A DNA stretch of 64,000 nucleotides from an uncultured Acidimicrobiia bacterium (GTDB lineage: Bacteria > Actinomycetota > Acidimicrobiia > IMCC26256 > JAENVU01). The position numbers and the translations under genes are program-made. The notes beneath the pieces were generated by a model. The model was not told where the DNA came from and ran no database searches. It worked only from the letters and a program-made list of their open reading frames with translations. Shown here in pieces: positions 46,231 to 52,083 of the stretch. Each line of letters begins with the position of its first letter. Position 1 is the first letter of the stretch. The stretch lies in contig CAWKBF010000001.1 of the NCBI GenBank assembly GCA_963847815.1, positions 20,773 through 84,772 on the forward strand. Reading direction: 5' to 3'.

Positions 46231-46256
46231 GGAACTTTCGCTCTGACCGTCCCGTC
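46231..46256 (+). promoter_or_regulatory. ECF-sigma-type promoter candidate (GGAAC-N17-CGTC) upstream of the serine protease gene
   Basis: GGAAC lies at 46231-46235 and CGTC at 46253-46256, 34 nt before ATG 46290. Over 40 nt it matches the element at 50561 at 34 of 40 positions, with identical spacing. Confidence 0.6.
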
Positions 46257-46289
46257 GTCCCAATCGACACACCGACTGAGGAGGACACC

Positions 46290-47663
46290 ATGAGCAACCC
46301 CACCACCACCAAGCACCGCATCCGCATCCTGGCCGCCGGAATCACCGTCGCACTGGCCGGGACCGTCTTCGTCGCTCCGGCCGCAGACGCCGCGAGCACC
46401 CACCACCGCACCAAGCAGGTGACCGGCTCGGGCCTGCTGCGCCGCGCCGGCCACGACTTCACCAAGGCCGAGATGCTGAGCGCCACGCCCGTCGATCTCA
46501 CCGCCGCTCCCGGCACGAGCGACGCACCCCAGGTCCTCAGCCGGGCGATCAACCCCAAGAGGAAGGCGATCATGGTCAAGGGGGCGGACACCGCAGGGCC
46601 ACTGGCCCGGGCCCGCATCCAGGCCCGGACCCGGTTCGGCGCCCCGAAGGGCAACCTCCAGAGCGACTGGATCTGCGACACGCAGAACCCGATCGGCGTC
46701 GGTCTCGGTGGCCCCGGCTACTGCGACGACGCGACGGCACCGGTCGACGAGCCGTCGATCGACCCGAGCTCCTACGAGCCCAGCTCCTACAACCCCGTGC
46801 AGAGCCCGATCCAGGTCCCGACCGACATCACCCCGGAGCCCACCCCGGCACCGGCGCCGGAGCCGACCCCGGAGCCGACGCCGGCACCGGCGCCCGAGCC
46901 GCAGCCCGCTCCGGCACCGGCGCAGCCCGACGCCCGCACCTGGGACTACTCCCGGGTCACGTGGGGCACCGACCAGTCGAACCTGGTCACCCGCACCACC
47001 GGCCGCATCTTCTGGGACGAGGGCACGAGCCTGCACTTCTGCACCGGCACGGTCGTCAACACTGCCAACCAGAGCGTGGTCTGGACCGCAGGCCACTGCG
47101 TGCACAGCGGCGCCGGCGGGACGTTCCACAACACCAACTGGCGCTTCGTTCCGGGCTACGACAACGGCAACGCCCCGTACGGCCAGTTCCCTGCTCGTGA
47201 GCTGTGGAGCACCAACCAGTGGATGCAGAACGGTGGCGAGCACGGCCCGTTCCTCGAGGACTTCGGCGCCGGCATCGTGGGCCGTGACGGCCAGGGTCGG
47301 ACGCTCATGCAGGCCGTGAACGGTGGCCAGGGCATCCTCTTCAACCAGGCGGTCGACCAGACCTTCGTGCAGGTCGGCTACCCGGGTGAGGGCCAGTTCG
47401 ACGGCTCGGTGGCGTACGCCTGCCTCAACCACACCGCCGAGGTCCAGGCCGAGACGGACGGCACGACGCCCACCCAGATCGGCGTCGGCTGCGACATGAC
47501 CGGCGGCTCGAGCGGTGGCCCGTGGCTCATCGGCCTCCAGAGCAACGGGGTCGGCTACGTGAACAGCGTGACGAGCAACGGTTCCGCACTCACGCCGCAG
47601 ATGCACGGTGCCTACCAGGGGGCCAACGCCTACACCCTCTTCCAGTCGGTCGCCTCCCGCTAG
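46290..47663 (+). CDS. Secreted trypsin-like serine peptidase with a Pro-rich linker
   Basis: This is ORF 46290..47663 with a GAGGAGG RBS. It has a signal peptide (RIRILAAGITVALAGTVFVAPAADA), the catalytic His in TAGHC and the catalytic Ser in GGSSGGP. Confidence 0.85.
   Translation: MSNPTTTKHRIRILAAGITVALAGTVFVAPAADAASTHHRTKQVTGSGLLRRAGHDFTKAEMLSATPVDLTAAPGTSDAPQVLSRAINPKRKAIMVKGADTAGPLARARIQARTRFGAPKGNLQSDWICDTQNPIGVGLGGPGYCDDATAPVDEPSIDPSSYEPSSYNPVQSPIQVPTDITPEPTPAPAPEPTPEPTPAPAPEPQPAPAPAQPDARTWDYSRVTWGTDQSNLVTRTTGRIFWDEGTSLHFCTGTVVNTANQSVVWTAGHCVHSGAGGTFHNTNWRFVPGYDNGNAPYGQFPARELWSTNQWMQNGGEHGPFLEDFGAGIVGRDGQGRTLMQAVNGGQGILFNQAVDQTFVQVGYPGEGQFDGSVAYACLNHTAEVQAETDGTTPTQIGVGCDMTGGSSGGPWLIGLQSNGVGYVNSVTSNGSALTPQMHGAYQGANAYTLFQSVASR
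46833..46928 (+). repeat. In-frame Pro-rich tandem repeat (PEPTPAPA-type linker)
   Basis: It translates to PEPTPAPAPEPTPEPTPAPAPEPQPAPAPAQP. The repeats are imperfect 6-24 nt CCG/GAG/CCC units. Confidence 0.7.
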
Positions 47664-47691
47664 GCGCACCGCAGCACCGCACCACCGGGTC

Positions 47692-47715
47692 GGGCCCCAC
47701 CTTCGGGTGGGGCCC
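47692..47715. terminator. Perfect 10-bp GC hairpin with a UUCG loop between convergent genes
   Basis: The sequence is GGGCCCCACC-TTCG-GGTGGGGCCC. It lies 29 nt after the protease stop and 106 nt after the convergent sigma gene stop. There is no clear T-tract. Confidence 0.55.
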
Positions 47716-50379: not shown

Positions 50380-50560
50380 TCCGTTGCGCGCGTGTTGTGG
50401 CATTTCGTCACCTCGGCGACTAACCTCCCGCCTTCGGGAGTTGGGTGAAGTGGGCGGTTTCATGCGGGAACGGCGGGCGACGGCGGCACGGTGCGCGCGT
50501 CGAGCCGCGCCCAGATCCACCCTCCGATCCGGGGGCAGCAGCGGGCTCCGAAGAAATCCG

Positions 50561-50586
50561 GGAACTTTCGCGGCGACCCTCCCGTC
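50561..50586 (+). promoter_or_regulatory. ECF-sigma-type promoter candidate (GGAAC-N17-CGTC) upstream of the FHA-protease gene
   Basis: GGAAC lies at 50561-50565 and CGTC at 50583-50586, 40 nt before ATG 50626. It is near-identical to the element at 46231. Confidence 0.6.
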
Positions 50587-50625
50587 GTCCCGATCGAGAC
50601 CCACTCACCAGGAGGATCGATTCCC

Positions 50626-52083
50626 ATGTGGTTGAAGTTCGAGTCAGGCGACCGGCGCGGCGACACCGTCGAGATCACGAACCGGCAGTTCCTCGTCGGC
50701 CGTGACCAGGACTGCGACCTGCCCATCGACGACGAGCGGGCGTCCCGGCAGCACGCCCGGTTCGAGACCCTCGACACCGGCGGGATGGTCCTCCGTGACC
50801 TCGGTGCCACCAACGGCACCTACGTCAACGGCACGAAGATCAGCGAGCCCGTCGTCCTCGAGGGCGGCGAGACGGTGCGGATCGGTCGCACCGAGCTCGC
50901 GGTCTCCCGCAACGCTCCGATCGCGCTGACCGCCTTCGACCCGGGCACCAAGGTTGCGGCTGCCGCGGCGGCCGCGGATGCCGGAGCGGACGCACCGCCC
51001 CCGGTTGCGACCACGCCGACCCCCTCCGCGATCGAGCGGTCGGACCTCCGCCGTTCGGTGAAGCGCTCGTCCGTCATCGCCGCCGTCTCCGGCGGCGTCG
51101 CCCTCGTGCTGGTGATCGTCCTCGTCGTCGTTGCGGTGACCGGCGGCTTCTCGAGCGGCTCGGACGACTCGACCGCCGCGATCGTCAAGGACGTGAAGTC
51201 TTCGGTGGTGGACGTCGTGACGAGCGTCGACAAGCAGGACCTCTCGGGCGGCACCGGCTGGGTGGCCGACGCGGAGAAGGGCTACATCGTCACGAACAAC
51301 CACGTCGTGAACACCGGGACTGACTTCACCGTCGTCGTCGACGGGCAGCGCCGGCCGGCACAGCTGGTCGCCGCCGCACCGTGTGACGACCTCGCGGTGC
51401 TCCAGGTGGCCGACACCCAAGGGCTCGAGACGATCGAGCTCGGCTCGCAGAGTGACCTCGAGCAGGGTGAGAAGGTCGTGGCGCTCGGTTACCCGGGCAA
51501 CGCGTCGCGTGCTTCGGAGCTCCAGACGACCGAAGGCATCGTGTCGGCGACCAGCACCCGGGTCGACAACCCGGTCGACGAGGCGCCGGTGTACCGAAAC
51601 GTCGTGCAGACCGATGCGGCCGTCAACCCGGGCAACTCCGGTGGACCGCTCGTCAATGGTGATCGCAAGCTCGTCGGTGTCAACACCTACGGCGGCGGCA
51701 ACGAGAACCAGAACTACGCGATCGGCGTGGACCGGGTGAAGGAGCTTCTCCCCGATCTCCTCGCGGGCAAGTCACCGAGCTGGTCCGGTCTCGGGTTCGT
51801 GTTCTCGTCCAGTGGCAACGACGAGCAGGCGAAGCGGCGCAAGGTGGGACTGCCCACCTCGGTTCCGGGGATGCTCGTCGTCAACGGTGTGCCGGGCTCA
51901 GATGCGTTCAGCACGATCGAAGGACCGGCACTGCTGGTCGCGATCGACAACGTGCCGGTCGACGGATCCATGGAGTCGTACTGCAAGGCCGCCCAGGGCT
52001 ACTCGACCGACGACAACGCCACGTTCACGTTCTTCGCCCCGAAGCAGACTCGGGCCGTCGACGTGAAGATGGCCTTCAACTAG
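50626..52083 (+). CDS. FHA domain - TM helix - extracytoplasmic trypsin/HtrA-like serine protease with a PDZ-like tail
   Basis: This is ORF 50491..52083 with the start at ATG 50626 (AGGAGG RBS). The FHA region reads FLVGRDQDCDLPIDDERASRQHARF...NGTYVNG. The TM helix is VIAAVSGGVALVLVIVLVVVAV. The protease has the motifs TNNHVV, DLAVLQV and GNSGGPLV. Confidence 0.85.
   Translation: MWLKFESGDRRGDTVEITNRQFLVGRDQDCDLPIDDERASRQHARFETLDTGGMVLRDLGATNGTYVNGTKISEPVVLEGGETVRIGRTELAVSRNAPIALTAFDPGTKVAAAAAAADAGADAPPPVATTPTPSAIERSDLRRSVKRSSVIAAVSGGVALVLVIVLVVVAVTGGFSSGSDDSTAAIVKDVKSSVVDVVTSVDKQDLSGGTGWVADAEKGYIVTNNHVVNTGTDFTVVVDGQRRPAQLVAAAPCDDLAVLQVADTQGLETIELGSQSDLEQGEKVVALGYPGNASRASELQTTEGIVSATSTRVDNPVDEAPVYRNVVQTDAAVNPGNSGGPLVNGDRKLVGVNTYGGGNENQNYAIGVDRVKELLPDLLAGKSPSWSGLGFVFSSSGNDEQAKRRKVGLPTSVPGMLVVNGVPGSDAFSTIEGPALLVAIDNVPVDGSMESYCKAAQGYSTDDNATFTFFAPKQTRAVDVKMAFN

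Follow-up and report, generated by a model that had tools for sequence, protein, structure and literature searches.

The locus and its two probable promoter sites

We analysed a 64,000-nucleotide stretch of high-G+C DNA (69%) from an uncultured Acidimicrobiia bacterium, referred to below as the window, in which two near-identical cassettes precede two serine protease genes lying on either side of a gene for an extracytoplasmic function (ECF) sigma factor. We interpret the cassettes, with a probability of about 75%, as ECF (group 4 sigma) promoters of a single cell-envelope module, both most likely read by the sigma factor encoded within it. The first protease gene (46290..47663, plus strand) encodes a secreted S1 (trypsin-fold) serine protease of 457 amino acids with a signal peptide (hydrophobic segment at residues 13-31), a Pro-rich linker and a catalytic domain. 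Its residues 229-454 match PDB entries 3wy8 (1.5e-31) and 3cp7, the alkaline serine protease AL20 (1.3e-28), and its His and Ser motifs, TAGHC and GGSSGGP, align with those of solved S1 proteases, which places it among the S1 serine peptidases; it gave no Pfam match at threshold (Trypsin_2 at E = 0.32 only). Convergent with this gene, on the minus strand, is that of a SigM-like ECF (group 4) sigma factor of 186 amino acids (47821..48381; Pfam Sigma70_r2 and r4_2), the candidate reader of both promoters, and divergent from the latter, across a 90-bp spacer, is the gene for a Hanks-type Ser/Thr protein kinase of 635 amino acids (48472..50379, plus strand; Pkinase 2.9e-43).

The second protease gene (50626..52083, plus strand) encodes a membrane serine protease of 485 amino acids with a cytoplasmic FHA domain (7.9e-19 in Pfam), one membrane helix (residues 150-168) and an extracytoplasmic HtrA-like trypsin domain (Trypsin_2, 2.8e-28). 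This protein has 1256 homologues at E<=1e-20 and scores 136.6 against the HtrA/DegP model TIGR02037, the cutoff of which is 416; no PDZ domain was called in it, and some homologues carry one. It is followed after 33 nt by the gene for an Hsp70-like ATPase of 672 amino acids (52117..54135, plus strand; Pfam HSP70 5.6e-48) with an actin-fold ATPase domain (residues 1-356), a membrane helix (484-502) and a Pro/Thr-rich extracytoplasmic tail, which has its own Shine-Dalgarno sequence and is probably co-transcribed with the FHA-protease gene. An earlier note on this DNA had described two proteases flanking the sigma gene, which is correct, and had left out that the sigma gene is on the opposite strand, that the kinase gene lies in between and that the second protease has an Hsp70-like operon partner.

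The two cassettes, at 46231-46270 and 50561-50600, are identical at 34 of 40 positions in an ungapped alignment. This is far above chance expectation, as 300 shuffles of both intergenic regions gave best 40-mer matches of 21.4 +/- 1.2 positions and never more than 26. The predicted ECF-type promoter of the secreted S1 protease gene (46231..46258, plus strand) comprises a -35 element GGAAC (46231-46235), a 17-nt spacer (46236-46252) and a -10 element CGTCGT (46253-46258, with CGTC at 46253-46256); that of the FHA-protease/Hsp70-like operon (50561..50588, plus strand) has the same elements at 50561-50565, 50566-50582 and 50583-50588 (CGTC at 50583-50586). Both sites thus combine a -35 element containing AAC with CGTC at a distance of 17 nt, are intergenic, and point towards a nearby downstream gene. 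The architecture reported in the earlier note, including the Shine-Dalgarno sequences and the ATGs at 46290 and 50626, held up on re-examination, and these ATGs are the real starts, because the N-terminus MWL is invariant in 15 FHA-protease homologues and a Shine-Dalgarno sequence precedes both. The bare motif GGAAC-N16-18-CGTC is not enriched in the window (seven matches, 4.5 expected, the other five lying within open reading frames), and the significance of the pair comes from its extended match and its position, not from the minimal motif. A scan with consensus sigma-70 promoters and terminators gave no matches.

At 6-16 nt upstream of GGAAC the DNA is mildly A/T-rich (46215-46225 and 50550-50557 in the window, and in the same place in other loci), with 40-80% A+T at some columns against a background of 31%. 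This patch is similar to an UP element and to the A-rich stretch described for SigM sites.

The similarity of the two window copies also extends to 19 of the 25 non-core positions, against a median of nine over all site pairs compiled below, as might be expected of a small repeat element, or of what is left of a local duplication, with no regulatory role. However, the similarity begins and stops with the promoter block, the flanking DNA cannot be aligned, and between lineages the conserved positions cluster in the -35 and -10 blocks instead of being evenly spread, so that we consider such an origin extremely improbable.

Conservation and specificity of the motif

For comparison, we retrieved contigs that carry close FHA-protease and sigma factor homologues. 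The module recurs among unrelated flanking genes in five further lineages, represented by loci L081, L082/L091, L083, L084/L089/L090 and L099, and part of it is present in L101. It consists of the sigma gene, the divergent kinase gene, and the FHA-protease and Hsp70-like genes in either order, the Hsp70-like gene being always present, and usually includes the S1 protease gene convergent with the sigma gene. Across the module lineages the sigma factors are from 85% down to 67% identical to that of the window (67-88% among orthologues in the same module). In every lineage both the S1 protease gene and the gene next after the kinase have GGAAC-N17-CGTCG upstream, and the second gene after the kinase is often also preceded by it; the motif is present together with the sigma gene in every module locus.

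Altogether we compiled 15 sites, 13 of them from other loci, all upstream of module genes and on the coding strand. Their consensus is tGGAACtT-N14-cCCGTCGT, i.e., GGAAC-17 nt-CGTC. GGAAC is invariant (15/15), the -10 element is CGTC(G) in 15/15 sites and CGTT in none, and the spacing between GGAAC and CGTC is exactly 17 nt in all 12 of the sites compiled first (two from the window and ten others). The information content over the 15 sites forms two blocks, at -2..+7 (tGGAACtT) and +21..+27 (cCCGTCGT), and is near background in the spacer, upstream and downstream; this two-block profile has the form of a bipartite promoter and shows no palindrome or repeat. Start codons follow the sites at 30-45 nt, after an intervening Shine-Dalgarno sequence, and the orthologous S1-protease sites of L081, L082 and L083 are 32-33 nt from the protease ATG. 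The 50561 site is identical at 40 of 40 positions in L101, a 90% relative, and is orthologous to L081:9937; where its spacer departs from that of L081, compensating indels restore the length of 17 nt. We also considered copying of the promoter between the two window genes, and rejected it on the grounds that the FHA-protease promoters of the window and L081 align as orthologues with these compensating indels.

Two loci carry additional copies. In L083, an extra strong site (29 bits; L083:2144-2746) precedes a signal-peptide open reading frame that continues, past a frameshift, into an M23 (LytM-type) peptidase domain, and the regulon of this lineage may include a third secreted peptidase. A third copy (L084:11586, L090:3799) stands before a 312-amino-acid gene downstream of the FHA-protease gene; its spacer, of 17 nt in L090, reads as 18 nt in L084/L089, which are nearly identical to L090, and the longer reading is probably a long-read or assembly indel error. 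L090 itself shows a fused 980-amino-acid Hsp70-FHA-trypsin open reading frame, which is likely to be an assembly frameshift.

The earlier note had also seen the similarity of the two cassettes continue through the leader and had suggested an additional shared leader function. The predicted leaders are short (25-35 nt). That of the S1 protease gene (46259..46289, plus strand) has its Shine-Dalgarno sequence GAGGAGG at 46278-46284 and a transcription start that we infer to lie near 46263-46266; that of the FHA-protease gene (50589..50625, plus strand) has AGGAGG at 50610-50615. Beyond position 40 of the cassettes, the two share the Shine-Dalgarno sequence and the ATG and nothing else, and the alignment there requires gaps. 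The information content drops to background directly after CGTCGT, and the similarity that follows the -10 element, CCCrATCGAsAC, occurs only in the window and in L101 and L081, the two loci most closely related to it, and is lost in more distant lineages. The leaders fold no more stably than shuffled sequences (z = 0.2 to 1.1; 0.8 and 0.18 for the two window leaders), and Rfam gave no matches over 45500-54500 at E<=1. These results lend no support to a conserved leader function; the first transcribed nucleotides may conceivably still act in a lineage-specific manner.

The leader region differs in loci in which the Hsp70-like gene comes first after the kinase (L082:7829-7960, L083:7006-7140, L099:4700-4833 (minus strand)). 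Here an in-frame ATG follows CGTC after 8-9 nt, 34-40 codons upstream of the conserved N-terminus, and the encoded peptide is not conserved; the same stretch contains a conserved TACGCT (TAnnnT). The gene may have a leaderless start in these lineages, or a leader of ~120 nt with a second promoter.

Conservation alone cannot separate a promoter from a protein-binding site, and the conserved blocks could in principle be bound by a transcription factor (activator or repressor) rather than by sigma, with the lineage-specific TCGAsAC just downstream as a possible operator. We find this very unlikely. The two blocks are unlike each other, being neither palindromic nor directly repeated; their orientation strictly follows that of the gene, and their distance from the start codon is that of a promoter. 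They coincide with the canonical ECF -35 and -10 elements at a fixed spacing of 17 nt, and the conserved genes of the module include none for a transcription factor.

We then assessed specificity with a position weight matrix (PWM) trained only on the ten sites of other lineages, with which both strands of the window were scanned. The 46231 and 50561 sites scored 32.0 and 31.8 bits, respectively, the next best match in the window 8.4 bits, and the maxima in simulated random 64-kb windows were 11.7 +/- 2.2 bits. The earlier note's statement that there is no third copy in the 64-kb window, and none in the 90-bp spacer between the sigma and kinase genes, was thereby confirmed. As a negative control we used 1.37 Mb of 80 unrelated protease loci from a genome-collection scan for FHA-proteases with generic HtrA motifs, in which only one match reached 15 bits or more. 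The motif is absent upstream of the FHA-protease paralogues in the sigma-less loci L085-L088, which have a rhomboid context, and from the neighbourhood of a SigM-like relative of the sigma factor (L092). A metagenome scan with the sigma alignment returned six distant sigma factors only, and no module.

In the sigma-less loci L086-L088, the paralogous FHA-protease gene follows a rhomboid gene and stands beside at least four further FHA-domain genes. This FHA-rich run (~11489-18586 in L086/L087, shifted by ~-2500 in L088), in which one gene carries a fusion to Tricorn/PD40 repeats, forms a cluster of its own.

The proposal of the earlier note that both sites are ECF-type promoters of one regulon, with the neighbouring sigma factor as candidate regulator, is thus supported by conservation in five further lineages, by the exact 17-nt spacing, by the absence of the motif from sigma-less loci and by the specificity of the PWM. 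In the arrangement that we propose, the first promoter would drive the secreted S1 protease gene, and the second would drive an operon for the FHA-anchored HtrA-like membrane protease and the membrane-anchored Hsp70-like ATPase. Together with the sigma and divergent kinase genes, both units would make up a conserved five-gene module for cell-envelope protein quality control, the sigma factor of which would most likely read both promoters. All proposed targets face the envelope, having either a signal peptide or a single membrane helix.

The sigma factor and its kinase neighbour

The sigma factor scores 95.3 against TIGR02937 (cutoff 42.9) and consists of sigma2 and sigma4 domains only, as ECF sigma factors do. 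Its best equivalog is SigM (NF007225), with a score of 126.9 that stays below the cutoff of 190. It falls among 12 close clusters (>=68% identity), all metagenomic, followed by a gap to relatives of <=54% identity; the next tier of homologues, at 51-54%, occurs in a SigM-type murJ/thioredoxin/parB context, as exemplified by L092 (53%). The neighbours of the module sigma gene are kinase and protease genes instead of the SigM-type anti-sigma gene and murJ/thioredoxin context, and the module contains no anti-sigma gene, nor any further conserved gene able to be one. Two features set the kinase-linked subgroup apart: a conserved Ser/Thr-rich linker between sigma2 and sigma4 (SQIVSPSSGTSTIIRTR, residues ~111-127), the Ser/Thr residues of which are candidate phospho-acceptor sites, and the lack of the C-terminal NRxxPxERPT tail of SigM-like relatives. 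Judged by these comparisons, the sigma factor is a kinase-linked offshoot of the SigM-like ECFs and the best candidate regulator of both promoters.

How the regulators are expressed can be approached through the spacer between their genes. A conserved element, GATGGTACGGT, lies at 48423..48433 (plus strand) and is found in all six lineages: GATGGTAC(G/C) occurs in the sigma/kinase spacers of the window, L081, L082, L083, L084 and L099, nearly fixed at ~43-46 nt from the kinase ATG and at a variable 13-70 nt from the sigma start. It is probably the extended -10 element (TGgTAnnnT) of a housekeeping-type kinase promoter, and TACCAT on the opposite strand may serve the sigma gene. In L082 just 7 nt separate TACCAT from the sigma ATG, so that the transcript would be leaderless. 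The sigma gene is not autoregulated via the ECF motif, and both regulator genes would be expressed from this housekeeping-type promoter region. The pattern suggests constitutive expression of the regulators with control after translation, which is consistent with the missing anti-sigma gene and the missing autoregulation. As there is no anti-sigma gene in the module, the activity of the sigma factor is probably controlled post-translationally, most plausibly by the adjacent kinase.

The kinase showed no convincing membrane helix in a hydrophobicity scan. Its C-terminal region of ~345 residues (291-635; 49342-50376) belongs to no Pfam family and is rare: in an exhaustive search three representative clusters among 1.84 billion reach E<=1e-30, and a word-indexed search found one match. 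The last ~140 residues, which are helical, also form the C-terminus in ~70 other clusters, many being proteins of ~600 amino acids, and the remainder is nearly unique to the module. A single-sequence AlphaFold (AF2) model of the C-terminal region is of low confidence, with a mean predicted local distance difference test (pLDDT) value of 51.

Precedents for such a pairing are the ECF43 sigma factors, which are activated by Ser/Thr kinase phosphorylation, as in EcfP/PknT of Vibrio parahaemolyticus and EcfK/PknS of Xanthomonas citri (PMC8999054; PMC13147305). Like these, the module has an ECF sigma gene beside that of a Hanks-type kinase, in this case in six lineages, with no anti-sigma gene and a small dedicated regulon (PMC8999054; PMC13147305). 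In ECF43, however, the acidic DAED motif of region 2.2 is lost and a phospho-threonine acceptor takes its place (PMC8999054), whereas the module sigma factor keeps the acidic DAAD, as its SigM-like relatives do, and all orthologues have DAAD, DAQD or DVAD, with no Ser/Thr in the motif. The module sigma factor is also actinobacterial and not related to ECF43 by its best matches, the window kinase is without a clear membrane helix, and sigma-factor phosphorylation by this kinase is putative. More generally, kinase-linked ECF groups typically lack anti-sigma factors (PMC7826278). The kinase-associated groups of the 2021 ECF reclassification, among them ECF283 from Nocardioides and the kinase-containing subgroups of ECF27, ECF40 and ECF210, resemble the module in that their ECFs are actinobacterial, have a protein kinase as a conserved neighbour and lack an anti-sigma factor (PMC7826278; PMC8999054). 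The pipeline of that reclassification predicts promoters from autoregulation (PMC7826278), so that the target promoters of the module, the sigma factor of which is not autoregulated, would not emerge from it.

Further features accompany the module. Between the convergent protease and sigma genes is a perfect 10-bp GC hairpin (GGGCCCCACC-TTCG-GGTGGGGCCC, 47692..47715), which has no T run, was not called by the terminator scan and is a possible two-way terminator. A 6-bp hairpin after the kinase gene (CTCCCG-CCTT-CGGGAG, 50425-50440) likewise has no T run and was not called. Upstream, the module is neighboured by a gene for a luciferase-like monooxygenase (45172-46173, minus strand).

Which sigma factor is likely to read the promoters

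Mycobacterial SigM is the closest named sigma family by sequence, as judged from the NCBIfam match, and belongs to ECF27. The -35 element of SigM is GGAACCG with an A-rich patch upstream, so that both systems have a GGAAC -35 element with an A/T-rich patch upstream (PMC13491425). Unlike SigM, which has the anti-sigma factor RsmA, the module sigma factor is without an adjacent anti-sigma gene; it also lacks the C-terminal tail, has a Ser/Thr-rich linker, is paired with a kinase and remains below the equivalog cutoff. SigM controls ESX-4 substrates, in contrast to the proteases and the Hsp70-like protein that would be the targets of the module.

In these targets the module resembles the sigE/RpoE envelope-stress regulons with HtrA/DegP-type proteases, where an ECF sigma factor induces extracytoplasmic serine proteases and chaperone-like proteins. 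The -35 element GGAACTT of the module is similar to the sigE type, also as known from Escherichia coli. The -10 element CGTCGT of the module differs from CGTT or TCAAA of sigE/RpoE regulons, and the module is without an RseA-type or zinc-binding anti-sigma factor and has, as further parts, a kinase, an FHA domain carried by the protease and an Hsp70-like ATPase tethered to the membrane.

These likenesses bear on a further explanation, in which the cassettes are genuine ECF promoters that are read by a different ECF sigma factor, for example a sigE-like envelope-stress sigma factor, while the module sigma factor has other targets. GGAAC with a CGT-type -10 element is read by several actinobacterial ECFs, and sigE/sigH promoters (GGAACN-N16-CGTT) share the -35 element and the spacing (PMC10012870). 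Nevertheless, none of the 15 sites has CGTT as its -10 element, which is CGTC(G) throughout, and the motif accompanies the module sigma gene in six lineages despite their differing flanks and is absent from loci without that gene. We therefore regard a different reader as unlikely, and infer that it is the module sigma factor on which the two promoters depend.

Several points weigh against this assignment. As several actinobacterial ECFs read GGAAC/CGT promoters, a sigma factor encoded elsewhere could drive or cross-recognise the sites, and the 64 kb of the window are the visible part of the genome. The PWM scan found no ECF motif before the sigma or the kinase gene, which is unusual for ECFs and removes the argument from autoregulation. 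Control of the sigma factor by the kinase is proposed from gene neighbourhood, and the ECF43 mechanism does not seem directly transferable, because the sigma factor keeps the acidic DAAD in region 2.2. In addition, the comparison is based on six lineages, all of them metagenome assemblies, and a search of public sequencing runs for the window sequence returned no run that holds it.

It is tempting to speculate that the module represents a new type of phospho-signalling circuit for envelope proteostasis, in which the soluble kinase would activate the SigM-derived sigma factor via the Ser/Thr-rich linker (SPSSGTSTIxRTR) and not via region 2.2; the sigma factor would induce the membrane protease, and the cytoplasmic FHA domain of the latter would dock on the phosphorylated kinase or sigma factor, closing a feedback loop in place of an anti-sigma factor. 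We regard this proposal as unlikely. By contrast, the locus very probably encodes a real and fairly ordinary stress-response circuit, the interpretation of the two cassettes as module promoters being well supported by phylogenetic footprinting, and is otherwise a typical envelope-stress regulon in an uncultured actinobacterium-like lineage.

The analysis supplies a concrete target promoter and a minimal regulon, with two or three peptidases of the envelope and an Hsp70-like ATPase of the membrane as its proposed members, for a kinase-associated, non-autoregulated ECF sigma factor of an uncharacterised SigM-derived subgroup. Standard pipelines cannot predict the targets of such a sigma factor, because they infer ECF target promoters from autoregulation (PMC7826278). 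Among kinase-linked ECFs, experimental study has been limited to members of ECF43 (PMC8999054). Since its sigma factor keeps the acidic region 2.2 and an FHA domain is present on a target protein, the module would be a useful second model for the control of sigma factors by Ser/Thr kinases.

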